A stretch of DNA of 58,392 nt, from the NCBI GenBank assembly GCA_038065035.1, contig JBBTRV010000006.1:1-58392 (forward strand), given 5' to 3'. Below the pieces are notes generated by a model. It did no database searches, had not been told where the DNA came from, and saw only the letters and a program-made list of their open reading frames with translations. The DNA comes from Patescibacteria group bacterium (GTDB taxonomy: Bacteria > Patescibacteriota > Minisyncoccia > UBA6257 > UBA9933). Each line of letters begins with the position of its first letter. Within the stretch, counting starts at the first letter, position 1. The translations under genes and the position numbers were made by a program. Of this stretch, positions 1 to 58,392 are shown one piece after another.

Positions 1-1137
1 GTATTGCTTGTTAAGGATGCAGTATTGCTTGTTGCGGAGGCCGATGCAGGCGAAGAGGTTGGAGGAAGAATGACAAGAATCAGAATATTCAATACTAGAA
101 ACATTAGTAACTACATTTGTTATAAATTTTAAATTATAGCCGCCAAATCCAACATTATTTCCTTCATATACAATTTCCGAATGTACTAGATTATTAGCAT
201 CGTATACATCTTTTAAGTGATGCCCTCTTAAACAATTTTTTGAATCTTCGGAATCAAAAACATAAAAACTATTCTTTATATTTCTTGAATTGGAAATTGC
301 ATCGCCTGTACAATTATTCGCTTTAATAATATTAGCGTATTTATGCAAAGATTTTTTTGCAATTTCAACAAATTGATTTTTTAATTTTGAAAATAAGGCC
401 TCGCTACCAATATCAAATTTCTTAATTTCTTGTTGATATATTTCTTTAGTATATTGCTTATTTTTTATAATATATTCTTTATTTCTTAAATTGCTGGACA
501 TAAAACAATTCGTACAATTAGCGGAATCAAATAAAAACTGAGAATCAATACAATTGCGCGATTCTATTAATTCTGTTGATTTATAACCTTTATCAACATC
601 TATACATTCATAACAAAGCTCACTATTTGTAAGATGTAAACAGTCAATGCAATTTATTGATTTATCAACTGCTCTTGAATACATAATATCTTCCGAGTCC
701 AATGCGGAAATGGAAAGATATATATTTTTAGAATTCCAACTATTATTTGCATAGTCAGAATTTTGATTATTTGTGCCATAAAAATTAATCCTAGGAATTT
801 TCCTTTGTAATTCAAAAAATTGTTGAAAAAACGGCTTTGAAAAATTATAATCAACCCCGTAATTTATGGCGTCCCAACCATCAGAATACCAGCATTTCTG
901 ACAATAAGAAATAAATCCACTATCTGGTGCGCACATACTCACCACAGATAAACCGCATAAACCGCATTTATTTTTATACAATGCCCTTTCGTTTCTATTG
1001 GCAAATCTCCTTTGAAGACGGCAATCAAAACACCAAGTCGGCGGAGGAACTTTTATTTTGTCATAAAAAGTAAAATCTTCAGGTTCTATTTGAAAATTCT
1101 GATGGCAATTTTGGCAATTGTAAATTTTGGAATGCAT
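1..1137 (-). CDS. Cys-rich zinc-ribbon repeat protein, paralog A (3' end runs off window)
   Basis: Absent from ORF track because there is no stop in the window. ATG at 1137..1135, open in frame to base 1 (379 codons). Translates MHSKIYNCQNCHQNFQIEPEDFTFYDKIKVPPPTWCFDCR... and ends ...NLFACIGLRNKQYCILNKQY. Shares the N-terminal motif and GLRNKQY block with the ORFs at 1693, 54804 and 57262. Confidence 0.8.
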   Translation of the reverse strand, partial: MHSKIYNCQNCHQNFQIEPEDFTFYDKIKVPPPTWCFDCRLQRRFANRNERALYKNKCGLCGLSVVSMCAPDSGFISYCQKCWYSDGWDAINYGVDYNFSKPFFQQFFELQRKIPRINFYGTNNQNSDYANNSWNSKNIYLSISALDSEDIMYSRAVDKSINCIDCLHLTNSELCYECIDVDKGYKSTELIESRNCIDSQFLFDSANCTNCFMSSNLRNKEYIIKNKQYTKEIYQQEIKKFDIGSEALFSKLKNQFVEIAKKSLHKYANIIKANNCTGDAISNSRNIKNSFYVFDSEDSKNCLRGHHLKDVYDANNLVHSEIVYEGNNVGFGGYNLKFITNVVTNVSSIEYSDSCHSSSNLFACIGLRNKQYCILNKQY

Positions 1138-1141
1138 ATTT

Positions 1142-1426
1142 TTACTTGAATAATCTTTTTAATTTAAGATAAAAATTTTCTCTAATTTGTATTAAGTGGA
1201 CTATAATTATTTTATTTTTGTTATCAAAAGTATAAGCCAAACGATAATCTTTGCCGCCAACTTTAAAATGAAAAGAATAGAGAAAATTCAACGAACCAGA
1301 GAGTTTTTCTCCTAGATAGGGATTAGATTTTAATTTTTGGACTGATTCCACTGAAGCAATTCTTACATTCTTCGGCAATTTTTTAGCTTCTTTCTTAGCA
1401 GACGGAGTAATTAAAATCCGATACAT
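1142..1426 (-). CDS. RelE/ParE-family type II toxin
   Basis: 94 aa, basic. Shows the typical RelE/ParE pattern (MYRILITPSAKKEAKKLPKN ... YRLAYTFD...IIIVHLIQIRENFY). Sits 20 nt downstream of a small ORF. Confidence 0.75.
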   Translation of the reverse strand: MYRILITPSAKKEAKKLPKNVRIASVESVQKLKSNPYLGEKLSGSLNFLYSFHFKVGGKDYRLAYTFDNKNKIIIVHLIQIRENFYLKLKRLFK

Positions 1427-1446
1427 TAAATATTAATTGAAAAAAA

Positions 1447-1659
1447 TCAGATAATTTTTTCAATTGGCTCAAATTTTTTACTATCAGCCTCTTTAAAGCT
1501 TTTTGCAAGAAGGTTAATTGTTTTTTTGTCTAAAAAAATTTCTAAGGTTTCTAAGTCGGCGGGAGACAATAATCGGCTTAATGTTTCTAATTTAATAACG
1601 GCGTTTCTCGCCTCTTCAAATGCTTTAATATTTGTTTTTGTTACCATGGCTGTATTCAT
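1447..1659 (-). CDS. putative antitoxin of the RelE-like toxin
   Basis: 70-aa ORF immediately upstream of the toxin on the same strand. Assigned by position only; family not recognised. Confidence 0.5.
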   Translation of the reverse strand: MNTAMVTKTNIKAFEEARNAVIKLETLSRLLSPADLETLEIFLDKKTINLLAKSFKEADSKKFEPIEKII

Positions 1660-1692
1660 ATCATTTTAATTATAATTACAAAAATAAAAAAA

Positions 1693-3498
1693 TCAAATAA
1701 TTTCAGCCTGATAACACTTTTCGCAGTAGACTATCTCTGGACGTTCTGGCGAATAGGTAGTCTCAAATTCATTGGGACAATGGTCTTGGTTATGAAAATG
1801 ATTAATAGTGTTTTGGTAGATGTTTGTATTGTTTGGGTTTTTGCCTTCTATTCCCTGGCATTGGCATTGCCTTTTCCATAGTTTAAGAGGATTGCGCTGT
1901 TTTAGTCGTTGATAGTGGCGGCAGTTGGGGCATAGCCTGGGAAGAGGAAGGTTCATTTTTCTGTAGAAATCCAGTTCTGGTTGGATGATTTTGAAAGCTT
2001 GAGTGCATTGTTCGTTGCATCCGCCTGCTGGCGGATGGCTATTATGCTGGCATTCTATTGTTTCGTTAGTTATTGAATCATTGACGTCTTTGATGTGGTC
2101 AGGGAGATCTTCTGATTTGAGGGTTATTTGAATGTTGCGTTCTTCTGAGTCTTTCCAGACGTAGCCTTTGTTTATGGCTTGTTCTTTGGTTAAGAGAAAA
2201 GATTCCTCCGCCATAGTTTCATTGTAGCAAAAAGATGATAATTCTAATGGGAAAAATTCTCCATACTTATAAATACTGCCTTGTTTATCTGTATAGGGCA
2301 TATTATTCATATGCTGAATTATCATTGGCACTAGTTTTTCATATTCTTCTTTGGTGTATTGCTTGTTGAAGATGCAGTATTGCTTGTTGCGGAGGCCGAA
2401 ACAACCAAATAAATCAGAAGAGTTTTTGCAGTCAAAAGAATATTGGACATTTCTTCCTTCAACGATATTTTTAGAAAATAAAATCTTATATCCAATCACT
2501 ATACACGATTCATAGCAAAGCTGAGATTCTTCTCCGGTATCTATCATATCATAGCTATCCTTAGTAGCGGTTGCGATAATAATATTTTTGCAATTTTCAA
2601 TTGTTGATTTTAAAGAATCTATTTCAAAACAATTATGGCAGTTTTTAGCATTAGTAATATTATTGCCGGTAGTATTGATTGCATTATAAATAACTGCATA
2701 GCGTCTGGGAAAATCCATTTTAAATTGTTGAAATTTTTGAAATATCTCTTGAACCGTTTTAAAACTGCCCAAAAAATATTCTTCTGTTTTTTTCTTGTAT
2801 TCTTCTTTGGAATACGGCTTATTAAAAATATAATATTGCTTATTTCTCAAACCAACGCATCCGAAACAATTGCTGCAATTTTTGCAGTCATAAAGAAAAG
2901 ATGAATCTATGCATTCCACTGCGTATTGAGAAAATTTTACATTATAGCAATGGCTGCAATTTATGCATTCATAGCAAAACTCTGAATCAATAAGAAAAAA
3001 ATAATCAACGGCATCCTTGACGTTTCTGGTATAATGGCCGTACATGCAATTTTCTGCGTTAAAGCCAGTTGTATAATAACAATTTCTAGACCACGCCACT
3101 AAAGGACAATATAAACAATTTACCGACTCAATATTATGCAAATTAGATTTTGGAAAAACATCCGAAATTTCTTTTAATTGCTGAAAAAATGACTTTGAAA
3201 AATCGTATTCTCTGCCATATGTCATTGGATCCCATTTATCAGACCACCAGATTTTATAATCATACACAGGAAAAGAAGTTTCCGGCGGAAAAAGAGCGAT
3301 AATATCATCCCCGCTCCAACTGTCTTTTCTTTTATAAAGCTTTCTTTCATTAATAAATATCATCTTTCTTATAAATCTGCACCCTGGGCACCAAGTCGGT
3401 GCCGGAACTTTTGTTTTAGCGTAAAATTCAAAGTCTTCAGGTTTTATCTTAAAATTTTGTTTACAATTTTGACAAACGATTATTTCAATATTATTCAT
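1693..3498 (-). CDS. Cys-rich zinc-ribbon repeat protein, paralog B (full length, 601 aa)
   Basis: N-terminal CQNCKQNFKIKPEDFEFYAKTKVPAPTWCPGCR. Two Cys-rich blocks, each ending in GLRNKQY(Y/C)IFNK.Y.KEEY. C-terminal FKIIQPELDFYRKMNLPLPRLCPNCR repeats the N-terminal motif. About 60 Cys and no signal peptide. Confidence 0.85.
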   Translation of the reverse strand: MNNIEIIVCQNCKQNFKIKPEDFEFYAKTKVPAPTWCPGCRFIRKMIFINERKLYKRKDSWSGDDIIALFPPETSFPVYDYKIWWSDKWDPMTYGREYDFSKSFFQQLKEISDVFPKSNLHNIESVNCLYCPLVAWSRNCYYTTGFNAENCMYGHYTRNVKDAVDYFFLIDSEFCYECINCSHCYNVKFSQYAVECIDSSFLYDCKNCSNCFGCVGLRNKQYYIFNKPYSKEEYKKKTEEYFLGSFKTVQEIFQKFQQFKMDFPRRYAVIYNAINTTGNNITNAKNCHNCFEIDSLKSTIENCKNIIIATATKDSYDMIDTGEESQLCYESCIVIGYKILFSKNIVEGRNVQYSFDCKNSSDLFGCFGLRNKQYCIFNKQYTKEEYEKLVPMIIQHMNNMPYTDKQGSIYKYGEFFPLELSSFCYNETMAEESFLLTKEQAINKGYVWKDSEERNIQITLKSEDLPDHIKDVNDSITNETIECQHNSHPPAGGCNEQCTQAFKIIQPELDFYRKMNLPLPRLCPNCRHYQRLKQRNPLKLWKRQCQCQGIEGKNPNNTNIYQNTINHFHNQDHCPNEFETTYSPERPEIVYCEKCYQAEII

Positions 3499-3526
3499 AA
3501 TTTCCCTAAATCACCATTTCTTATAT

Positions 3527-3949
3527 TTATTTTATGGTAATCAATATTGCTCCCGCGGCCATCAGAATCGCTCCCAGTCCGGTTTTCCAGCCGAATGTTT
3601 CTCCCAAAAATAAAGCGGCTAAAATAATAACGAAAACAATACTCAGTCTGTCAATCGCCGCCACCCTTGAAGCCAAACCATATTTCAAAGCGAAAAAATA
3701 AAAAAGCCATGACAAAGCGCCGGCAACGCCGGACAAAACAATTAAAAGCCAGTCCCGGGAGCTGAAAGAATTAATTGAAAATCCCTGAAATTTTTTCAGA
3801 AAAAAACTTACCAAAACCAAGAACCCAGACATAATAAGCGCCCGCACCGTTGTCGCCAAGGTGGAATCAACATCTTTCAATCCCAGCTTGGCAAAAATCG
3901 CCACCAGAGCCGCCGTAATTGCCGATAAAAAAGCGTAAATCAACCACAT
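3527..3949 (-). CDS. EamA-like (DMT superfamily) small membrane transporter
   Basis: 140 aa with 4-5 hydrophobic helices and an EamA-type N-terminus (MWLIYAFLSAITAALVAIFAKLGLK). Confidence 0.7.
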   Translation of the reverse strand: MWLIYAFLSAITAALVAIFAKLGLKDVDSTLATTVRALIMSGFLVLVSFFLKKFQGFSINSFSSRDWLLIVLSGVAGALSWLFYFFALKYGLASRVAAIDRLSIVFVIILAALFLGETFGWKTGLGAILMAAGAILITIK

Positions 3950-4027: not shown

Positions 4028-4912
4028 ATGGAAATTTTGCTTTTAATAGACGCCCATGCTTTAATCCATCGATGCTTTCACGCGCTACCGCCTTTCAAAA
4101 ACAAAGAAGGTAAGCCGACCGGCGCGCTTTATGGTTTGTCCAGCATTTTAATAAAAATCCTCCATCCGGATAAAAAAAACGGCGCCGACGGCATCAACGG
4201 CCAAATTCCGGAATATATTGTTGCATTTTTTGACCGGCCGGAACCGACTTTTAGAAAACAAATTTACGACGGTTATAAAGCGCAAAGGCCGAAAGCCCCC
4301 GACGAACTGGTTTCTCAAATAATCGCCAGCCACCAGCTGTTTGAAGCTTTTAATATAAAAACTTTTGAAATTCCTGGGTTTGAAGGCGATGACTTAATCG
4401 GCACAGCTGTAGAAAAATTCAAAAACTATCCTGAATTGAAAATCATAATCTTAACCGGCGACTTAGATGCCCTGCAATTAATAGAAAACGAAAGAATAAT
4501 GGTTGAAACAATAAAAAAAGGCATCAGCGAAACAATAATTTATAACGAAGAAGAAGTAAAAAACCGCTTCGGAATTTTGCCAAGCCAAATTGCCGATTAC
4601 AAAGGATTAGTTGGTGATGTTTCAGACAACATCAAAGGCGTGCCGGGAATCGGACCGAAAACAGCGGCCGTTATTTTACAAAAATATAAAACTATTGAAA
4701 ACTTTTTTCAAAAAGGCCGAGAAGAAAAAAATTACGAGAAAATCATTGAATTTAAAGACCAATCAACAACTTCAAAATATTTGGCAGAGATAAGGAAAGA
4801 CGCTCCATTAGACATAAATATTCAAGATTTAAAATACGAAGGATTGCCGAAAGAAAAATTAATCAAACACTTTGAAACCTTAGGTTTTCAAAGCTTGATA
4901 AAAAGATTATGA
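4028..4912 (+). CDS. 5'-3' exonuclease / flap endonuclease (stand-alone Pol I N-terminal domain)
   Basis: LLIDAHALIHRCFHALP, GFEGDDLIG, and the H3TH motif GVPGIGPKTA. Confidence 0.85.
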   Translation: MEILLLIDAHALIHRCFHALPPFKNKEGKPTGALYGLSSILIKILHPDKKNGADGINGQIPEYIVAFFDRPEPTFRKQIYDGYKAQRPKAPDELVSQIIASHQLFEAFNIKTFEIPGFEGDDLIGTAVEKFKNYPELKIIILTGDLDALQLIENERIMVETIKKGISETIIYNEEEVKNRFGILPSQIADYKGLVGDVSDNIKGVPGIGPKTAAVILQKYKTIENFFQKGREEKNYEKIIEFKDQSTTSKYLAEIRKDAPLDINIQDLKYEGLPKEKLIKHFETLGFQSLIKRL

Positions 4913-10283: not shown

Positions 10284-11396
10284 TCAACTTTTTATTGGCA
10301 TTAAAATATAAAAATAAGAAGTGTCTTCTGGTGATTTTATAATTGCCGGCTTATTTGAATTACTAAAACCAAAGAAAATATTTTCAGAAGTTATATTTTT
10401 AATTCCATCTAATAAAAAGCGCCAATTAAAAATAACTTCTATTGGCTCTCCTTTTATTTTTGCGGAGATTAAATACTTATTCACCCCAAAAACATTATTA
10501 CAAGAAGATATTTCTATGTTTTTAAGATTTTCTTTTATGGTTATTTTTATTTCATTAAGCCGGTCTGTGAAGATTCCAACAAGTTTAACGGCGTTGATTA
10601 ATTCATCTTTATTTAAAACAACTTCTGTTTCGTGTGTTTTTGGAATAATTTGCTGATATTCCGGAAATTCACCATTAATTAATCTTGATATTATTTCTGT
10701 ATTTTCGTTTTTAAAAACAATTTGGGTTTGGTCAAAAAATATATTGATTTTTCCACTTTCATTTAATTGTGTTTCTTTAATAACCTCATTAATTGTTTTT
10801 AATGGAATAATAATCTTAAAAGCGTTATCAATATTTGATTTAAAATAATTATTCAAAATAGTCTCTTCAGAAAGCCTGAATGTATCAGTTGAAACAAATT
10901 TTATTACTGAATTTTGATAATCAAATAAAACCCCACTAAGTTCAGGTTTACTATCTTTAGTTGTTGAACTAATAATATTAATAAAAATATCTTTTAATAT
11001 TGAGTTTTGTATTTCAATATAATAATTATTGTTTTTTATTTTTGGAATAATTGGAAAATCTTCTTTTTTAATTCCATTTATTTCAGCTTCATAATTATCA
11101 GTTTTTAATAATATTTTATTATTATTTATTTCAATATTAATCCTTTCATTTTGTAAATTATTAATAATTGAATTAAAAATTCCAAAAGGAATAGTTATTC
11201 CTCCGTTTTCTATTATTTTTCCAGAAATAAAACTAATTACCGCTAATTCAAGATTTGTCGCTGAAAGTTTTATTCTATTATCAAATGATTCAATTAAAAA
11301 ATTTTTTAAAATTGGTAAATCGGTATCATCTTTTGTTATTTGCTCAATAACTCTAAGCCCATCTTTTAAATTTTTTTTTAAAACAACTAATTTCAT
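10284..11396 (-). CDS. dnaN: DNA polymerase III beta sliding clamp
   Basis: 370 aa directly downstream of dnaA, with a three-domain clamp-like pattern (MKLVVLKKNLKDGL...). Confidence 0.85.
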   Translation of the reverse strand: MKLVVLKKNLKDGLRVIEQITKDDTDLPILKNFLIESFDNRIKLSATNLELAVISFISGKIIENGGITIPFGIFNSIINNLQNERINIEINNNKILLKTDNYEAEINGIKKEDFPIIPKIKNNNYYIEIQNSILKDIFINIISSTTKDSKPELSGVLFDYQNSVIKFVSTDTFRLSEETILNNYFKSNIDNAFKIIIPLKTINEVIKETQLNESGKINIFFDQTQIVFKNENTEIISRLINGEFPEYQQIIPKTHETEVVLNKDELINAVKLVGIFTDRLNEIKITIKENLKNIEISSCNNVFGVNKYLISAKIKGEPIEVIFNWRFLLDGIKNITSENIFFGFSNSNKPAIIKSPEDTSYFYILMPIKS

Positions 11397-11530: not shown

Positions 11531-12898
11531 TTAAGCATTTTCATTGATTATTTCTTTTATTAATATTATTTTTTGGTTTAAGTTATTATTTTTATTAATT
11601 TCATTAGCTATTTTTTCATATGAATGGATTGCTGTTGTGTGATCTCTTTTTCCTATTTTATCCCCAATATCCGGGTAAGACATCCCCAATATTTCCCTAA
11701 GTAAAAATATTGTTATTTGTCTTGGTTCAATTAATCTTTTTCTTCTTGAATGGCTTATAATATCATCTGGTATCATTTCAAAAAAATCAGCCACTGTTTT
11801 TATTAATTGACCAGGGGTTATTTTTTTATCAACCTGGTTTATTGTGTTGCTTATTATTTCTTCAATTATTTTCGGCTGAAGATTAATATTCTTCGTTTCT
11901 TTATAAAAAACAATTTTATTTAAAATTCCTTCAATTTCTCTAATATTTCTTTGCACTTTTAAAGCTATAACTTGGCAGATATTATCTGGTAAATCAGCGC
12001 GCATTTGAACCAACTTCGTTTTTATAATAGCTAAGCGAGTTTCAAAATCTGGATAAGTAATATCTGCCGCCATTCCCCCCTCAAAGCGCGAGCGTAATCT
12101 TTCATGAAGTGTTGGAATAGCCGCCGGTGGCCTGTCGGAAGATATTATTATTTGTTTACTATTTTCATGTAGGGCATTAAATGTATGGAAAAATTCCATT
12201 TCACTTGCCTCTTTTCCCCCAATAAATTGAATATCGTCAATAATTAAAACATCTATATTGCGATATTTGTTTTTCATATCTTCCATTCTTTTGTTTCGGA
12301 TTCCGGCAACTACTTCATGAACGAATTTTTCACAATGAACATATTTTACCTTAATTTTATCTTTATAATTATTTTTTATTTCATTGCCAATTGCTTGGAT
12401 AAGGTGTGTTTTTCCAAGCCCCGTTCCGCCATAAATAAAAAATGGATTATATTTAACGCCAACATTTTTTATTACAGCAAGACTAGCGGCGTAAGCCAAT
12501 TCATTTGAAGAGCCGACGATAAAAGAATTAAGGGTGTAGCGCGGATGAAGTCCGGTTTCTTGGTCTATTTTAAATTCTGGAAATGTTAATTGCCTTTCCG
12601 CGGGTTGAGATTGTTGAGAAATATTATTTTGGTTTGCGGCTATTATTTTTGGGCCAACAACTATGTATTCAATTTTTTTTATTGAATTATCGTTATTTTT
12701 AAGAATTTCAAAAATAATTTTATGATATTTATTTTCCACCCATTCTTTGGCAAAATTGTTCGATAAACCGATTATTACTTCACCGGTATCTTTTTTCTCG
12801 CAAAGTTGGCTGTTTTTTAACCAGGTAAGAAAATTTGGGCGGGAAATTTGCAGTTCTATTTCCGATAAAACTGTTTGCCAAAGCTGGTTGGTGTTCAT
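11531..12898 (-). CDS. dnaA: chromosomal replication initiator DnaA
   Basis: Walker A GGTGLGKTHL, box VII RSRF, and a C-terminal HTH (DHTTAIHSYEKI). Confidence 0.95.
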   Translation of the reverse strand: MNTNQLWQTVLSEIELQISRPNFLTWLKNSQLCEKKDTGEVIIGLSNNFAKEWVENKYHKIIFEILKNNDNSIKKIEYIVVGPKIIAANQNNISQQSQPAERQLTFPEFKIDQETGLHPRYTLNSFIVGSSNELAYAASLAVIKNVGVKYNPFFIYGGTGLGKTHLIQAIGNEIKNNYKDKIKVKYVHCEKFVHEVVAGIRNKRMEDMKNKYRNIDVLIIDDIQFIGGKEASEMEFFHTFNALHENSKQIIISSDRPPAAIPTLHERLRSRFEGGMAADITYPDFETRLAIIKTKLVQMRADLPDNICQVIALKVQRNIREIEGILNKIVFYKETKNINLQPKIIEEIISNTINQVDKKITPGQLIKTVADFFEMIPDDIISHSRRKRLIEPRQITIFLLREILGMSYPDIGDKIGKRDHTTAIHSYEKIANEINKNNNLNQKIILIKEIINENA

Positions 12899-13190
12899 GG
12901 GTTAATAAAAAAATAAAATTTAGAAAACAAAAAAATAAAAATATTATACTTACTAAAATTTAAAATTATTTTATGTTTTATTTTCCACTTTTTAATTCTA
13001 ATTATAATCGTATTTTAATTTTAATTTTAGTCAAATAGGGAAATGTTCTAAATATGTGGATTAGTTGTGGAAAAATATTTTTATCCACTAGAATCCATTA
13101 AAATTCATTGCATAAAAAACTTTTTAATAATATAATTCTAATGATTATTCCACAATCTAAACAAAAAAACAAATAAGCTTATAAAAATTA
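12899..13190. promoter_or_regulatory. probable oriC / dnaA upstream region with a DnaA-box cluster
   Basis: DnaA-box-like 9-mers at 12981 (ttttccact), 13055 (tgtggatta), 13066 (tgtggaaaa = TTTTCCACA rc), 13081 (ttatccact) and 13146 (tattccaca) in very AT-rich DNA. Gene orientation is mostly minus from 1 to 12898 and entirely plus from 13191 to 22030. Confidence 0.6.
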
Positions 13191-14918
13191 ATGAAAATCA
13201 TTGATATTAAGGGAAAATTGGAAAAAATAAAGAGGGAAGCAGAAGAAAGAGACGCCCAAAGAAGGGCTAAAAAGAATAATTTCTCTTATCTTAACCTTAT
13301 TACCGCGCCAATTAATGTTGAGGCCATTGGTTTAATACCGGAAAAAGAAGCTAGGGCGCTTAAAACGGCCGCGATAGAAGTAAAAAATAAAGAATTAGGC
13401 GTTGCTGTTCACGACCCTACATTGCCGGAATTTAAAAGATTAACAGAAAATTTGAAAGAAAAAGGTTATAAGGTTATGATTTTCGTCGTTTCTTTGAGTA
13501 GTCTTGAACATGCTTATAATTTTTATAATTTTGTTTCTTTGGAAAAAAATAAAATTACTGGTTCGGTCGGCGTTGCCGGAGATACTAATCAAAAAATAGG
13601 CGAATTTAATTCAATTAAAAAAGTTGAAATCGTTTTAGAAACATTAAAACAAGCGCCAGCGGATGTTGCCGGTTTTTTGGAAATGATTTTGATTGGCGCC
13701 AGCCAAAACAGGGCTTCAGATATTCATTTTGAAGCAATGAAAGATTTTATAAAGTTGAGATTTAGAATTGACGGAGTTCTACACGATGTTTATAACAGAA
13801 TCAATAAAAATTTCTATTCTTATTTGATTTCCAGAATAAAGCTTCTTTCGGGCTTAAAAATAAACATCCGTGATGAAGTTCAAGATGGGCGGTTTACTGT
13901 TAATTTTCAGCAAAAAAACATTGAAATCAGGGTGGCTATTACTCCGTCTGAGTTTGGCGAAGTGATTGTGATGAGAATTCTTGACCCGGAAGCTATTAAT
14001 CTTTCTCTTTTAGGCCTTGGCATAAGGGAAGACGATTTAGAAATCATAAAAAATGAGCTTAAAAGGCCGAACGGCCTGATTTTAAATACTGGACCAACCG
14101 GTTCTGGAAAAACAACCACCCTTTATACTTTTTTAAAATATAAAAAAACTCCTGATATTAAAATAATAACCATTGAAGATCCGATTGAATATCATTTAGA
14201 AGGAATTGAGCAGACGCAGGTTGATGAGGATGCTGGTTATACGTTCACAAACGGCTTGCGATCTTTGATGAGGCAGGATCCGGATATGATTTTAGTAGGC
14301 GAAATCAGGGATAAAGAAACCGCGGAAATAGGCATCCAGGCAGCTCTAACCGGTCATTTAGTGCTTTCTACGGTTCATGCTAATTCAGCTGCCGGCGCCA
14401 TTCCCCGGCTTCTTGATTTAGGGGCAAAGCCATCAAGCATAGGACCGGCGTTAAATCTTGTAATAGCGCAGAGGTTGGTTCGCCGCCTTTGCAAGGATTG
14501 CAGAAAAAAAGTAGAAACAACCCAAGAAATAAAAGAAAAAATAGAAATCTTTATCAATAATCTTTCAAAAAGGGTTAATAAAATAAATTATAAAGAAATA
14601 GAAATTTTCGAGCCGCTGGCCGGCGGGTGCGAAAAGTGCAATAATTCCGGATATAAGGGCAGGGTCGGAATTTATGAATTGCTTTTAAACGACCCAGAAT
14701 ACGAAAAATTTTTAATCGATCAAACCCACACAAATCTTTCCTCCCACAAAGAGCTTGAAGAATTGATTCTTGGTTCGGCTTCTGAGGGCCAGATAAAAAA
14801 ATTCGCCTCAGAACAAGGGGTGACAACAATGCAACAAGACGGAATTTTAAAAGTGATTCGCGGAATTACCACCTTTGAAGAGGTGGAAGCGGTTACCGGT
14901 ACGATATCGTGGAAATAA
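13191..14918 (+). CDS. pilB: type IV pilus / type II secretion ATPase (PilB/GspE family)
   Basis: Walker A GPTGSGKTTT, Asp box, His box, and the C-terminal tetra-Cys CKDC...CEKC. Confidence 0.8.
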   Translation: MKIIDIKGKLEKIKREAEERDAQRRAKKNNFSYLNLITAPINVEAIGLIPEKEARALKTAAIEVKNKELGVAVHDPTLPEFKRLTENLKEKGYKVMIFVVSLSSLEHAYNFYNFVSLEKNKITGSVGVAGDTNQKIGEFNSIKKVEIVLETLKQAPADVAGFLEMILIGASQNRASDIHFEAMKDFIKLRFRIDGVLHDVYNRINKNFYSYLISRIKLLSGLKINIRDEVQDGRFTVNFQQKNIEIRVAITPSEFGEVIVMRILDPEAINLSLLGLGIREDDLEIIKNELKRPNGLILNTGPTGSGKTTTLYTFLKYKKTPDIKIITIEDPIEYHLEGIEQTQVDEDAGYTFTNGLRSLMRQDPDMILVGEIRDKETAEIGIQAALTGHLVLSTVHANSAAGAIPRLLDLGAKPSSIGPALNLVIAQRLVRRLCKDCRKKVETTQEIKEKIEIFINNLSKRVNKINYKEIEIFEPLAGGCEKCNNSGYKGRVGIYELLLNDPEYEKFLIDQTHTNLSSHKELEELILGSASEGQIKKFASEQGVTTMQQDGILKVIRGITTFEEVEAVTGTISWK

Positions 14919-16179: not shown

Positions 16180-16191
16180 ATATTGAAAAAT

Positions 16192-16283
16192 AGTAAACAC
16201 AAAGTTGTTTCGGAAACCTAAGCGGAAGCGCAGCCCCGCTTTGCGGGGCATGAGCGGGTTAGAGAAACAATTTTGTGTTTACT
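16192..16283 (+). repeat. 92-nt hairpin repeat element, copy E1
   Basis: 20-bp arms (agtaaacacaaagttgtttc / gaaacaattttgtgtttact, one G-U). Core gaaacctaagcggaagcgcagccccgctttgcggggcatgagcgggtt recurs inverted at 19986-20032. Confidence 0.6.
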
Positions 16284-16295
16284 GTTTGGTAAATT

Positions 16296-19956: not shown

Positions 19957-20057
19957 ATAAACAGCAAATGAAAAATTTTTCTTCAATCCGCTTACGTCCC
20001 GCTTTACGGGGCTGCGCTTCCGTTTAGGTTTCAGAAAAAATTTCATTTGCTGTTTAT
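19957..20057 (-). repeat. 101-nt hairpin repeat element, copy E2 (inverted relative to E1)
   Basis: Perfect 17-bp arms (ataaacagcaaatgaaa / tttcatttgctgtttat). The core is the reverse complement of the E1 core at about 80% identity by eye. Confidence 0.6.
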
Positions 20058-43812: not shown

Positions 43813-43886
43813 GCGTCCATAGCTCAGCTGGTTAGAGCACGGCTCTTATAAAGCCGGGGTCGATGGTTCGAATCCATCTGGACGCA
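43813..43886 (+). tRNA. tRNA-Ile (anticodon TAT)
   Basis: gcgtcca ta gctcagctggttagagc a cggct ctTATaa agccg gggtc gatggttcgaatccatc tggacgc a. Confidence 0.8.
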
Positions 43887-43900
43887 CATTTCTATTTTCC

Positions 43901-45694: not shown

Positions 45695-45736
45695 AAGGAG
45701 AGTGTTTGTCATTAGACAACCTCTCCTTTTCTTTTT
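45695..45736 (+). terminator. terminator of the collagen-like gene
   Basis: aaggagag ... ctctcctt followed by ttcttttt. Confidence 0.55.
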
Positions 45737-45769
45737 GGCAAACATTTTTTATTTAACACTTATTGACAA

Positions 45770-46520
45770 AAGCGTGAAACATTGTGAAACATTTTTAACA
45801 TTGAAAATATGAGACAAAACGTTTCACGTCAAACACTTTGTCTCATATTTTCGATGTCATATTTTAAAAAAGTCTTTTTAAAATGTTTCACATTTTTTTG
45901 GCAAACATTTTGCGAACATTTTTATATCTGTCACTAGTCTGATTAAACAATGTTTCACGTTTTACACTGTATATTATCTTATTAACCAATGTTTGCCGTT
46001 TTACATCAATTATAGAAAATGTGTACGATGTTTCACGTTTTACACTTGTTTTTTTAAAATCATAGTGTTTCACGTTTTACATAGGTATTTTGTTCTTTTT
46101 ATAAAATCAGCTATAAATATAAAAATTCTATTTTTTGAAATTCAAAAACAGTATTATAAGCTATATTAATTTATTATATTGAAAATTATCCTTGTACCAA
46201 TGTTTCACGTTTTACACTATGTATTATCTTATTAACCAATGTTTGCCGTTTTACATAAATTATGGAAAATGTGTACGATGTTTCACGTTTTACATCGGAT
46301 TAATTTTTAGATATGATGTTTCACGATTTACACTAGTTATCTCTTATAAAAATGTTTCACACTAATACGTGAAACATTTTTATAGAAACTACATCAAAAA
46401 TATGAGACAAAGTGTTCGACGTGAAACACTTTATCTCATATTTTGAGCATTAAATTTAATAATTGATTATTGTGGATATGTTGCTATCTTTTATATGTGT
46501 ACGATGTTTCACGTTTTACA
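45770..46520 (+). repeat. iteron array: about 9 direct copies of ATGTTTCACGTTTTACA plus inverted half-sites and hairpins
   Basis: Copies start at 45950, 45989, 46028, 46065, 46200, 46239, 46278, 46316 and 46504. A 97-bp unit (45948-46044) is duplicated at 46198-46294. No credible ORF. Confidence 0.8.
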
Positions 46521-46683
46521 TTGGATACGCTAAATATCCTGTTAAAAAATGTTTTCCACATGTTCTTCACATCGGCTTTATTTTACGTATTAAAACTTCC
46601 TCATTAAATAAGGATTTTTATGGCTTAATTTTTAAATTATAAAATATGGATTTATTTATGATTTTTTAGTTATAATAATAACA

Positions 46684-54803: not shown

Positions 54804-56603
54804 ATGAATCAAGAAATTAAAACTTGCCAAAACTGCAAACAAAATTTTACCATAGAATCAGAAGATTTCGCTTTTTACGACAAAATAAAAGTTCCGCCGC
54901 CGACTTGGTGTTCGGAGTGCCGAATGATTCGCCGCATGAATTGGCGCAATGAAAGAACATTATACAAAAGAAAATGCGATGCACCCGGACATAATGAAGA
55001 AATAATCTCCATTTATCATAAAGATTCGCCGTTTAAGGTTTATGACTATAAATATTGGTGGAGTGATGAATGGGATTCTTTGATATATGGCAAGGATTAT
55101 GATTTTTCACAGCCGTTTTTTGAGCAGTTTAAGGAGTTATTAAGAGAAGTTCCTCATAATAATTTAGTATCGGGGAATAATGTAAATAGCGAATATGTAA
55201 ATTTTCAAGCTAATAGTAAGGATTGCTATTTAGCAACGGGGGGTCAATTTAATGAACAGGTTATATATAGCAACCATGTTGTAAATTCAAAAGACTCCAC
55301 CGATCTTTATTTTGTTTTTAAGATAGAACTTGGTTATGACGATGTAATTTGCCAAAATTCATATCGTTTATTTTATAGTCAGAATTGCGATAATTGTATT
55401 GATTCTTATTTTTTATATGATTGCCGAAATTGTCAGAATTGCTTTAGTTGTGTTGGATTAAGAAATAAGCAATATTACATATTTAATAAACCTTATTCAA
55501 AAGAAGAATATGAAAAGAAATTAAGAGAGTTTAATTTAGGTAATTTTAATCAAATTAAAAAACAAAAAGAATTATTTAATGAATTTAAATTAAGATATCC
55601 TTATAAATTTATAAATTCTGTTAGGGGAGAAAATATTTCTGGGGATAATATAAGCGACGCTAAAAATTGTAAATACGCATTTGATATACTTCCGGGAGGC
55701 AGTGAAAATTGTAAATTTCTTTGGTGGAGCGGTAATGTTATAAAAGATGTTTATGATGGAAATGTTGGCATGAATGTTGAATCATCATATGAAAATATAT
55801 CTGTTATAAATAACGTTTCAAGAGTATTGTTTTCAGTTTCTATTTGGACTGGTTATGATATCCAATATTCTGAGAATTGCCATAATTCCTCCAATCTCTT
55901 CGCCTGCGTCGGCCTCCGCAACAAGCAATACTGCATCCTCAACAAGCAATACACCAAAGAAGAATACGAAAAACTAGTGCCCCAAATCATAGAGTATATG
56001 AATAATATGCCCTATACAGATAAACAAGGCAGAATCTACAAATACGGAGAATTCTTCCCGCCAGAACTGTCTCCCTTCAGCTATAACGAAACAATCGCCC
56101 AAGAATACTTCCCCTTAACCAAACAACAAGCCATAGAACAAGGTTACAGCTGGAAAGACCCGGAACAAAGAAATATCAATATAACCCTCAAATCAGAAGA
56201 CCTTCCTGACAATATCAAAGACGTCAAAGATGATATAATCAACCAAATCATAGAATGCCAGCATCAGAACAATCCGCCAGCAGGCGGATGCAATGAACAA
56301 TGCACCGAAGCCTTCAAAATCATCCAACCAGAACTGGATTTCTACAAAAAAATGAATCTTCCTTTGCCCAGACTATGCCCTAACTGCAGGCATTACCAGA
56401 GACTAAAACAACGCAATCCACTTAAACTATGGAAAAGGCAATGCCAATGCGCTGGCAATAAGTCAGAAAACGAAGTTTATCAAAACACTATTGCTCATAC
56501 GCATGGAGAAAAGCATTGTGAAAATACCTTTGAAACTACTTATGCTCCTGAACGTCCGGAAATTGTCTATTGTGAAAAGTGTTACCAGCAGGAAGTGATG
56601 TAG
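54804..56603 (+). CDS. Cys-rich zinc-ribbon repeat protein, paralog C (full length)
   Basis: ATG at 54804 (MNQEIKTCQNCKQNFTIESEDFAFYDKIKVPPPTWCSECR) preferred over the TTG at 54780. The C-terminal about 235 aa are highly similar to paralog B. Confidence 0.85.
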   Translation: MNQEIKTCQNCKQNFTIESEDFAFYDKIKVPPPTWCSECRMIRRMNWRNERTLYKRKCDAPGHNEEIISIYHKDSPFKVYDYKYWWSDEWDSLIYGKDYDFSQPFFEQFKELLREVPHNNLVSGNNVNSEYVNFQANSKDCYLATGGQFNEQVIYSNHVVNSKDSTDLYFVFKIELGYDDVICQNSYRLFYSQNCDNCIDSYFLYDCRNCQNCFSCVGLRNKQYYIFNKPYSKEEYEKKLREFNLGNFNQIKKQKELFNEFKLRYPYKFINSVRGENISGDNISDAKNCKYAFDILPGGSENCKFLWWSGNVIKDVYDGNVGMNVESSYENISVINNVSRVLFSVSIWTGYDIQYSENCHNSSNLFACVGLRNKQYCILNKQYTKEEYEKLVPQIIEYMNNMPYTDKQGRIYKYGEFFPPELSPFSYNETIAQEYFPLTKQQAIEQGYSWKDPEQRNINITLKSEDLPDNIKDVKDDIINQIIECQHQNNPPAGGCNEQCTEAFKIIQPELDFYKKMNLPLPRLCPNCRHYQRLKQRNPLKLWKRQCQCAGNKSENEVYQNTIAHTHGEKHCENTFETTYAPERPEIVYCEKCYQQEVM

Positions 56604-56644
56604 TTTGACTTTGAAATTGAAAATATAGTAATATTCTATATATT

Positions 56645-56824
56645 ATGACAACAACAGCCTTAAAAGAAAAAGTGTTTCAATTACAAGCTGAATTAGAATT
56701 TATTAAAAAAGCTTTTGAAAAAGAGCCTGATTTCGATATCGACGAAAAAAACTGGAAAAAAATTAAAGCAGATTCAAAAAAAACAAGAGCGAAATTATAT
56801 CAAATTCGCTATGGCAAAAAATAG
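56645..56824 (+). CDS. putative antitoxin of the PIN toxin (59 aa)
   Basis: Below the track cutoff. MTTTALKEKVFQLQAELEFIKKAFEKEPDFDIDEKNWKKIKADSKKTRAKLYQIRYGKK. Overlaps the PIN start by 14 nt. Confidence 0.5.
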   Translation: MTTTALKEKVFQLQAELEFIKKAFEKEPDFDIDEKNWKKIKADSKKTRAKLYQIRYGKK

Positions 56825-57254
56825 GGTCTTTTTAGACAGCAGCACTTTAATAGCCGCTATCCTTTCTCAATCAGGCGGCTCTTTTTATATTTTGAACAGA
56901 TTTAGGAATGATTTTGAATTTCAGATTAATAATTATATTTTTGATGAATTAATGGCAATCGCGGATAAAAAGTTTTCAATAGATAAGGATTTCAAAAATA
57001 AATTATTTCTTCTTATCGGCATGGTTCCTATAAAAATTTTAAATGATTCATCAAAATCTAAAACTGATATTGCAGCAAAGTTTATTAACAAAAATGACGC
57101 GCCGATTTTAGCTTCGGCTTTAATACATAGTAATTATCTTTTGACTTTAGATAATGATTTTTTAAAAGAATCGGCAATAGAATTCGCTCAAAAGAAAAAT
57201 TTGATTATTTTAAAACCGAAAGATTTTATTGAAAAATTTAGAAATAAAATTTAA
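56811..57254 (+). CDS. PIN-domain toxin (VapC-like)
   Basis: MAKNRVFLDSSTLIAA...NDAPILASAL...LTLDNDF (acidic PIN residues). Start moved to the internal Met in frame with the track ORF. Confidence 0.75.
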   Translation: MAKNRVFLDSSTLIAAILSQSGGSFYILNRFRNDFEFQINNYIFDELMAIADKKFSIDKDFKNKLFLLIGMVPIKILNDSSKSKTDIAAKFINKNDAPILASALIHSNYLLTLDNDFLKESAIEFAQKKNLIILKPKDFIEKFRNKI

Positions 57255-57261
57255 TGCTTTC

Positions 57262-58392
57262 ATGATTTCCGAAACAAAAACCTGCCAAAACTGCAAACAA
57301 AATTTTACCATAGAACCCGAAGATCTCGCTTTTTACGACAAAATCAAAGTACCGCCGCCGACTTGGTGTCCGGAGTGTAGGATGGTAAGAAGATTTATAT
57401 GGCGAAACGAAAGAGCGCTTTATAAAAGACAAAGTGATTTTTCTAAAAAAGATATAATATCTTTATATTCAAAAATTTCACCTTTCAAGGTATATGACCA
57501 TAAAGAATGGTGGTCAGATGAATGGGATTCAATGAGTTATAGCAGAGAATATGATTTTTCTAAGCCATTTTTTATCCAATTTCAAGAGCTTCAAAAAAAA
57601 GTGCCTAGAATTTCTATTTTTAATCAACAGTGCGTAAATTCTGAATACACAAATCAATCTTATGAAAATAAGAATTGTTATTTGTGTTCCAGTATCGCTA
57701 ATTCCGAAGATAGCGCCTATTGCGCTAATGTAAATGAAATTAAGCAAGCACTAGATTCTTTTTTTGTCAATAAATCAGAGCTTGGCTATGAATTAATAGA
57801 TTCTGAACGTTGTTATAATTCTGCATTTATAATTAATTCAGATAATTGCATTGATTCAATGTTTCTTTATGATTGTAAAAATTGCCAAAATTGCATCGGG
57901 GCGGTTGGATTGAGAAATGGGCAATATGTATTTTTCGGTGAGCAGCTTTCCAAAGATAAGTTTAACAAGAAGAGACAGGAATTTATTTTAGGAGGGTATG
58001 AAATATTAGAAAATGTAAAAAAGAAATTTTTAGAATTAATTATTAAATTTCCGAGAAAATCTGATCGCCTTAAAAAGTGTGTAAATTGTACGGGCGATTT
58101 TTTGACTAATTCTAAAAATGTAAAGCAGGGATTTGGAGCGTTTGACCTGGAAGATTGTGGTTATATTACGCGGATGTATGCCTGCAAGGATGTTTATGAT
58201 AGTTATGGATTAGGAGAAAGCCAATTAATTTACGAAACAATAAGTAATCAAACAGTTTATAGTGTTAAATTTTCTAATGTAACTAGTGATTCTAGAAATT
58301 GTGATTATTGTGATTTATGTTTCAATTGTGAGAATTGCTTCGCCTGCATCGGCCTCCGCAACAAGCAATACTGCATCCTTAACAAGCAATAC
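57262..58392 (+). CDS. Cys-rich zinc-ribbon repeat protein, paralog D (3' end runs off window)
   Basis: Not in track because there is no stop. MISETKTCQNCKQNFTIEPEDLAFYDKIKVPPPTWCPECR ... CFACIGLRNKQYCILNKQY. 377 codons, open to the last base. Confidence 0.8.
   Translation, partial: MISETKTCQNCKQNFTIEPEDLAFYDKIKVPPPTWCPECRMVRRFIWRNERALYKRQSDFSKKDIISLYSKISPFKVYDHKEWWSDEWDSMSYSREYDFSKPFFIQFQELQKKVPRISIFNQQCVNSEYTNQSYENKNCYLCSSIANSEDSAYCANVNEIKQALDSFFVNKSELGYELIDSERCYNSAFIINSDNCIDSMFLYDCKNCQNCIGAVGLRNGQYVFFGEQLSKDKFNKKRQEFILGGYEILENVKKKFLELIIKFPRKSDRLKKCVNCTGDFLTNSKNVKQGFGAFDLEDCGYITRMYACKDVYDSYGLGESQLIYETISNQTVYSVKFSNVTSDSRNCDYCDLCFNCENCFACIGLRNKQYCILNKQY

Follow-up and report, generated by a model that had tools for sequence, protein, structure and literature searches.

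The right end of a 58,392-nucleotide (nt) stretch of DNA from a Patescibacteria group bacterium (contig JBBTRV010000006.1; the whole stretch is termed the window) contains a toxin-antitoxin (TA) module located between two paralogous Cys-rich genes. These genes belong to a family, labeled F, and the four copies within the window were termed A, B, C and D. On the plus strand, the locus begins with paralog C, a full-length gene with a translation of 599 amino acids (aa; 54804..56603). Sliding identity and the GC content of third codon positions (GC3) defined a constant module at the 3′ end of this gene (55858..56603) that is homogenized among the four paralogs. A spacer (56605..56646) located 5′ of the next open reading frame (ORF) contains sigma-70-like hexamers and is, by consensus match only, a candidate TA promoter. 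The ORF itself (56645..56824) encodes a 59-aa candidate antitoxin, the putative partner of a 147-aa PIN toxin detected with Pfam, a candidate VapC-like RNase (56811..57254). The two genes overlap by 14 nt, and 7 nt separate the PIN stop codon from the start of paralog D, of which the first 377 of 593 codons are present (57262..58392; the full-length gene occupies 12459-14240 of another contig, L001). All of these gene coordinates, the overlap and the gap had been proposed in a sequence-only reading of this DNA and were re-derived unchanged. Promoter- and terminator-like sites showed no excess over shuffled sequences in scans of this AT-rich region, no terminator-like site was found in the scan between PIN and D, and an Rfam scan detected tRNAs only.

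The left end of the window exhibited the same order of paralog, small ORF, toxin and paralog on the minus strand, as the sequence-only reading had described. Paralog B (601 aa, full length; 1693..3498), which has exact matches to the tail of A, is followed by an ORF for a 70-aa candidate antitoxin (1447..1659), its putative partner, a 94-aa toxin of the ParE/RelE superfamily (PF15781 and PF05016; 1142..1426), and then paralog A, which starts 4 nt beyond the toxin stop codon. The first 379 of the 599 codons of A are present (1..1137), and the gene is completed in a contig of a metagenome-assembled genome (MAG), L002.

The right toxin matched the Pfam PIN family with an E value of 1.1e-5 (26.4 bits against a cutoff of 23.6), and residues D9, E46, D96 and D114 were invariant among 29 homologues. 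Searches detected 135 homologues of this toxin, in Patescibacteria in every case. The 59-aa ORF, noted previously as having been missed by the gene track, is annotated as a gene in a different assembly of this organism. In five further loci (L168, L171, L174, L177 and L179), PIN homologues were preceded by a partner of 57 to 64 aa with a conserved sequence, indicating that the ORF is a real gene and that the pair is a unit. The 59-aa protein had no Pfam or NCBIfam match above noise, including to the AbrB, RHH, PHD/YefM and HTH folds of DNA-binding antitoxins. The left toxin matched PF15781 (ParE-like_toxin) with an E value of 1.6e-18 (66.9 bits against a cutoff of 28) and also PF05016 (ParE_toxin; E value of 1.1e-6), and 81 homologues were found in Patescibacteria; by sequence alone, a gyrase poison of the ParE type could not be separated from an mRNA-cleaving enzyme of the RelE type. 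Its partner, without a Pfam match, is conserved at 70 to 75 aa ahead of the toxin homologues of L180, L184 and L185. The earlier suggestion that each small ORF and toxin form a TA pair was therefore upheld by the Pfam domains, the PIN acidic residues and the conservation of both partners next to toxin homologues elsewhere. Both pairs look genuine and, by family, are credible type II TA modules, with toxicity and neutralization by the partner predicted from the families concerned. PADLOC returned no matches for C, B, either toxin or either partner.

In other genomes, the two TA lineages were observed beside TrmB, a diversity-generating retroelement (DGR)/transposase island, pilin, CorA and RF-1, and such varied contexts appear to reflect the behavior of mobile addiction modules. 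Viewed from the TA side, PIN or ParE-like homologues abutted an F gene in two of eight contexts. In L179, a PIN homologue with 64% identity was located 3 nt upstream of an F gene, and in L168 a PIN homologue followed an N-terminally short F member. The L174 homologue and its partner (958-3571) were situated beside a DGR-like set consisting of bAvd and two RVT_1 fragments, together with a Transposase_mut gene and a HEPN protein.

Searches with paralog C retrieved at least 8,000 homologues of ∼600 aa, all from Patescibacteria and all annotated as hypothetical, and a profile search placed the size of the family at 4,890 clusters at 50% identity. Members have an N-terminal treble-clef-like zinc ribbon, a Cys-rich beta-solenoid middle and, at the C terminus, a conserved module in which another zinc ribbon is found, and the two ribbons (residues ∼7-63 and ∼491-548) are homologous to each other (E value of 7e-13). 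No match was found for the window F proteins in Pfam, NCBIfam, PADLOC or a PDB sequence search, and inspection by eye of the N-terminal sequence showed no evident signal peptide. Weak matches to zf_Tbcl (PF13451) were obtained with 22 of 50 members (best E value of 4.4e-4) but with none of the window proteins. An AF2 model of C (pLDDT of 73) contained stacked strands at residues ∼120-370. The Foldseek matches to the PDB that were listed (50 of 171) were nearly all to beta-helix proteins and were weak (TM scores of 0.05 to 0.14; best E value of 7.6e-4). A search of 2.9 million viral contigs gave a single partial match, at a contig end, so the family seems to be essentially absent from viral contigs and not phage borne. 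No published description of F, or of its association with TA modules, was found in the literature searched.

Across 160 loci from genomes and metagenomes, as many as seven F genes followed one another in tandem on the same strand, very closely packed (median gap of 7 nt and many overlaps of 4 nt), and close coupling to any upstream gene was a general trait of these genes. Most arrays lacked a TA module, as did the upstream position of ∼90% of F genes. Paralogs from the same locus were no closer to each other than were pairs from different genomes (0.35 versus 0.36). The middles of the four window paralogs were only 34 to 44% identical in aa sequence to one another, yet each was closer to genes of other genomes, with identities of 64% for C and 69% for D; the four window paralogs are therefore ancient lineages. 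Contig ends fell inside an F gene in 30 of 109 cases (loci L005 to L165), which suggests that F often fragments metagenome assemblies.

The gene directly upstream of each F gene was classified in 155 nonredundant F-centered loci. Of the 20 to 21 toxin genes in these loci, 16 to 17 immediately preceded an F gene on the same strand, and the gaps from toxin to F gene fell for the most part between −4 and +14 nt (extremes, −19 and +97 nt). The upstream toxins were HicA (L011, L069, L119 and L124), RelE/YafQ/HigB-like (L028, L076, L086, L101, L128 and perhaps L111), PIN_3 (L079 and L091) and MazF (L043, L098, L149, L152 and L161). At other positions in these loci, profiles of the four superfamilies gave only four matches, of which two were credible and two weak; one of the credible toxins (L143) was likewise located between two F genes. 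Among 284 other small ORFs scanned with Pfam, no toxin family was represented more than once, and ten gene pairs resembling TA modules at other positions proved to encode ribosomal proteins, RuvX and similar proteins. As the upstream slot holds 13.7% of non-family genes, the occurrence of 17 of 21 toxins in this position has a binomial p of ∼7e-12 when kinship among loci is ignored. About half of the cases had a paralog-TA-paralog arrangement (L028, L079, L086, L098, L101, L128, L143 and L149), and in the remaining cases an unrelated gene was present upstream of the TA module. No F remnants were found upstream of TA modules with a non-family neighbor, except for an F tail at the start of L086. 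The sequence-only reading had named a lack of flanking paralogs in homologous loci as a refutation; instead, the paralog-TA-paralog arrangement recurred in approximately eight other loci, with other toxin families. The slot directly upstream of F is one in which TA modules of several superfamilies repeatedly land or are retained across Patescibacteria, more often than expected by chance. Two loci (L043, 2257-2888; L055, 7746-8462) contained a gene for a DUF5674 protein and an ORF of 86 to 99 aa without a Pfam match between two paralogs, which may be another two-gene module in the same slot.

The paralogs were also compared at the nucleotide level, since both gene ends had been described as conserved and the middles as divergent. 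This pattern was observed in the window paralogs, most strongly at the 3′ end, but the conservation of the 3′ part was not a property of the family. At the 5′ end, C and D share an exact 33-mer (54825-54857 and 57283-57315; none expected in shuffled sequences) and exhibited 87% identity over the first 30 codons. The shared segment is therefore real, but its description as almost identical over ∼100 nt was somewhat overstated, as identity over 177 nt was 80%. The first ∼100 nt of F genes were 80 to 85% identical across genomes. At identical residues of the 5′ end, the same codon was used at a frequency of 0.74 for C and D, 0.61 to 0.67 for the other window pairs and 0.47 ± 0.09 for cross-genome pairs. 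As this fraction is only mildly above the protein expectation, the 5′ similarity is probably due mostly to zinc-ribbon constraint and shared codon usage, with at most mild homogenization.

The last ∼40% of the window paralogs exhibited 72 to 100% nucleotide identity, compared with 40 to 70% for the middles. The 3′ module of C was 82% identical to that of B over 593 nt, and exact tracts were shared by A and D (360 nt; 1083-1442 of A and 1077-1436 of D), by A and B (200 and 60 nt, in the gene tails) and by C and D (the last 141 nt). C-terminal identity was 0.84 in this genome versus 0.50 in 176 same-locus pairs elsewhere. None of these 176 pairs exceeded its own best cross-locus C-terminal match, which ruled out homogenization as a trait of the family, and no paralog pair elsewhere had an exact match of at least 100 nt; such pairs may escape view, however, because assemblies break at exact repeats. 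These data show that the final ∼700 nt of all four copies, even those in inverted orientation 58 kb from each other, have recently undergone mosaic gene conversion, which was seen in this genome only. The converted module also had a distinct composition, with a GC3 of 0.41 to 0.46 versus 0.22 to 0.28 for the rest of the genes (0.44 versus 0.25 in C; background, 0.36 ± 0.07) and a step near codon 365. This step was ruled out as a family-wide trait by a mean difference of 0.008 in 150 members elsewhere. No donor of the GC-richer module was found, the best cross-genome nucleotide identity being ∼78%; a foreign origin of the module and GC-biased gene conversion are both possible explanations of the step.

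The window terminates in a perfect inverted repeat of 55 nt (58338..58392, within D, and 1-55, within A), which is the first 55 nt of the 360-nt tract common to A and D. Two contigs from other assemblies of the same organism extended beyond these ends. A 190-kb contig from Hainich groundwater (L001) was identical to the window over 13,589 compared nt and contained a complete D (593 aa), beyond which lie RNase H-like and RecO genes; a 115-kb MAG contig (L002), with one mismatch in 11,426 nt, contained a complete A of 599 aa followed by uvrB and uvrA. The 190-kb contig stops exactly at position 1 of the window. As the window ends 55 nt into the tract shared by A and D and the 190-kb contig ends at the same point, the symmetric truncation of A and D is an assembly break within a 360-nt exact inverted repeat.

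The genes dnaA (11531..12898) and dnaN (10284..11396) are present on the minus strand, and the cumulative GC-skew minimum is located at 10.5 to 13.5 kb, which places oriC at ∼13 kb, between the two TA loci. These loci are on opposite replichores, each pointing away from the origin. Co-orientation of both loci with replication on either side of dnaA/oriC therefore accounts for the mirror image and suffices alone. The proposal of a mirrored and duplicated four-gene cassette was abandoned on these grounds: the paralogs are ancient, the TA modules are unrelated, the mirror image is attributable to replication direction and the truncation is attributable to assembly. More generally, exact repeats inside F genes can break metagenome assemblies and mimic mirrored structures.

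The favored explanation, given a rough probability of 0.6, is that selfish TA modules have been retained in a favored slot upstream of F genes and that no dedicated four-gene machine exists. Selfish modules were preferred because most F genes lack a TA module, the toxins in the slot come from at least four unrelated superfamilies and the same TA lineages are found elsewhere. In the window, each tandem F pair carries an unrelated, self-contained type II module at its junction, abutting the downstream paralog. A labile partner is predicted, from the families concerned, to neutralize each toxin, such that loss of the module would arrest growth. Direct exact repeats in the paralog tails bracket each module (141 nt for C and D; 200 and 60 nt for B and A). 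A RecA-mediated deletion between these repeats would eliminate both the module and the paralog that follows it; addiction would penalize such deletions and might thereby help to keep the paralog pair. The module possibly, therefore, guards the downstream paralog against deletion.

Several points weigh against this explanation. The anti-deletion role is something that we infer only, and flanking repeats cannot be the general cause of the slot preference, as about half of the cases with a TA module upstream of F have no F gene or remnant on the opposite side. Toxicity, neutralization and cotranscription are predictions. The enrichment was derived from F-centered loci with 6-kb flanks and our own ORF calls, and its statistics treat the loci as phylogenetically independent. 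Profiles for toxins elsewhere in the loci were built from the upstream toxins and are biased to similar sequences, and the Pfam alignment mode hides families matched by one protein only. The 3′ parts of A and D were taken from two other assemblies that cross the 360-nt repeat, so their tails could be swapped; the shared exact tracts themselves are secure, whichever tail belongs to A or to D.

Selfish retention was weighed against a functional three-gene module, in which the downstream F gene would belong to the TA operon, being cotranscribed and translationally coupled, with a product that works alongside the RNase toxin or under its control; this product might act on the RNA or ribosome that the toxin attacks, or serve as an effector in stress responses or abortive infection. 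Abutting or overlapping toxin stop and F start codons, the absence of a terminator-like site between PIN and D and the RNase type of most or all slot toxins (MazF, HicA, RelE/YafQ and PIN) are as expected for such a module, and with a non-family neighbor the order was X-TA-F in eight of eight cases and never F-TA-X, albeit in an F-centered sample. A hibernation factor, TsaE, YqeY and L9 were also encoded directly upstream of F genes. Close coupling to any upstream gene is, however, general among F genes, and this explanation would require toxins of at least four unrelated superfamilies to couple to one common partner; ∼90% of F genes, moreover, have no TA module upstream. As the same PIN and ParE-like lineages were found without an F gene and PADLOC gave no matches, a three-gene module was considered unlikely. 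Alternatively, TA modules between F genes could be spread within and between genomes by homologous recombination, for example, after natural transformation, with the conserved 3′ end of one F gene and the conserved 5′ end of the next serving as recombination arms. This hitchhiking would fit the approximately eight F-TA-F loci besides the window, the cross-genome identity of the F 5′ ends and the location at the extreme gene ends of same-locus exact matches of at least 40 nt (the longest, of 80 nt, in the F-MazF-F locus L149); Patescibacteria also retain competence and recombination genes (PMC12455944). It was nevertheless rated as improbable, since half of the cases have a non-family upstream gene and no F remnant, cross-genome identities of 75 to 85% are low for RecA-dependent exchange and no two different F contexts were found to harbor nearly the same TA module.

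Two further explanations were weighed. Inverted duplication of a four-gene cassette, followed by replacement of one TA module, is the model implicit in the sequence-only reading and would explain the common gene order of the two loci, the 360-nt identity of A and D and the 82% identity of the 3′ halves of B and C. The identity is limited to the mosaic 3′ module, however, and the middles show no pairing of B with C or of A with D, all being 34 to 44% identical. With the closest relatives of C and D being present in other genomes and the TA modules being unrelated, such a duplication was regarded as highly improbable. Coincidence, in which TA modules insert anywhere and two happen to lie between paralogs, is in keeping with the mobility of these modules and the presence of the same lineages in other contexts but is very unlikely in view of the positional enrichment across the 155 loci.

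The window modules themselves add new members to known kinds of system, one VapBC-like and one ParE/RelE-like. The right module resembles VapBC systems in its four PIN acidic residues, in the small upstream gene that overlaps the toxin gene and in being kept as a unit that is scattered over chromosomal contexts; it differs in that the 59-aa partner has no match among known families of antitoxins or DNA-binding proteins and the lineage is confined to Patescibacteria. Similarly, the left module resembles ParDE and RelBE in the two ParE family matches of its 94-aa toxin and in its conserved upstream partner but differs in that this partner lacks a Pfam match and the toxin could, by sequence, be of either activity class. 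TA cassettes reportedly stabilize repeat-rich chromosomal arrays, as in the Vibrio superintegron. The window loci are similar to this system in having addiction modules nested among co-oriented repeated units and bracketed by deletion-prone direct repeats; here, however, the units are 1.8-kb conserved genes and the stabilizing effect is presumed. No attC-like repeats flanking the TA modules or paralogs were detected in a repeat scan, and no integrase was evident, without a specific search for one. A third co-oriented gene abutting the TA pair is reminiscent of tripartite systems (toxin-antitoxin-chaperone and paaR-paaA-parE), but the third gene here follows toxins of several superfamilies and most F members have no TA neighbor. 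Concerted evolution by gene conversion is known for tufA and tufB. It has also been described for bacterial paralogs in the case of the PE/PPE genes of Mycobacterium tuberculosis (PMC13061034). Mosaic exact tracts common to dispersed and inverted paralogs are shared by these cases and the window, but only the constant 3′ module was homogenized here, the variable middles were not exchanged and no such homogenization was seen in the 176 pairs elsewhere.

Other features of the window were also recorded. A 1-kb stretch without long ORFs (45700-46600) contains at least 10 ATGTTTCACGTTTTACA-like units, two 250-nt direct repeats and several palindromes. The DnaA-box-like words TGTTTCACA, TTTTCCACA and TGTGGATA are present in this stretch, though it is 33 kb from dnaA and the skew minimum, and the 115-kb MAG contig ends inside it at approximately window position 46551. 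A tRNA-Ile gene with a UAU anticodon (tat) adjoins tRNA-Val(tac) at 43813-43887; tRNA-Ile(UAU) is an uncommon bacterial means of reading AUA. A 31-nt hairpin is located at 16188-16287, and a 73-nt inverted repeat with 78% identity (16202-16274 and 19971-20043) encloses a 3.7-kb block of four plus-strand ORFs.

The most common conserved neighbor of F genes was a VirD4/TrwB-like ATPase (TrwB_AAD_bind and TraG-D_C; ∼480 to 545 aa), which was detected in 44 of 155 loci (for example, L010, 7823-9280; L046, 7834-9369; L167, 1553-3037; and 41 further loci). Such genes were directly adjacent to an F gene on the same strand in 38 of 63 instances. No VirD4-like ATPase or CutA1 gene was found within the window. 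A VirD4/TrwB-like ATPase of 653 aa in L168 (6070-8031; also in L169 and L170) carries a zf_Tbcl_2 treble-clef finger as a C-terminal fusion and adjoins the PIN TA module and the N-terminally short F member. A survey identified 5,713 VirD4-type (type IV coupling protein [T4CP]) homologues in Patescibacteria, mostly located far from virB4 (PMC12102498). F could conceivably be a client, substrate or adaptor of orphan VirD4/TrwB-like coupling ATPases, with solenoid middles for host or invader interaction and with the upstream RNase-type TA modules acting as coupled guardians or regulators rather than as passengers; this suggestion is speculative and was considered improbable.

The streamlined genomes of Patescibacteria are reported to be paralog poor and, by hypothesis, TA poor (PMC12455944). 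F breaks the paralog-poor pattern, with thousands of diverged members, arrays of up to seven copies and no annotation. The window locus provides a clean natural example of domain-limited concerted evolution, and the two neighbor associations, with TA toxins upstream and VirD4-like ATPases alongside, are the first testable clues to the role of F. The association of F with VirD4-like ATPases may, furthermore, bear on the role of the thousands of orphan T4CP homologues in this phylum (PMC12102498).

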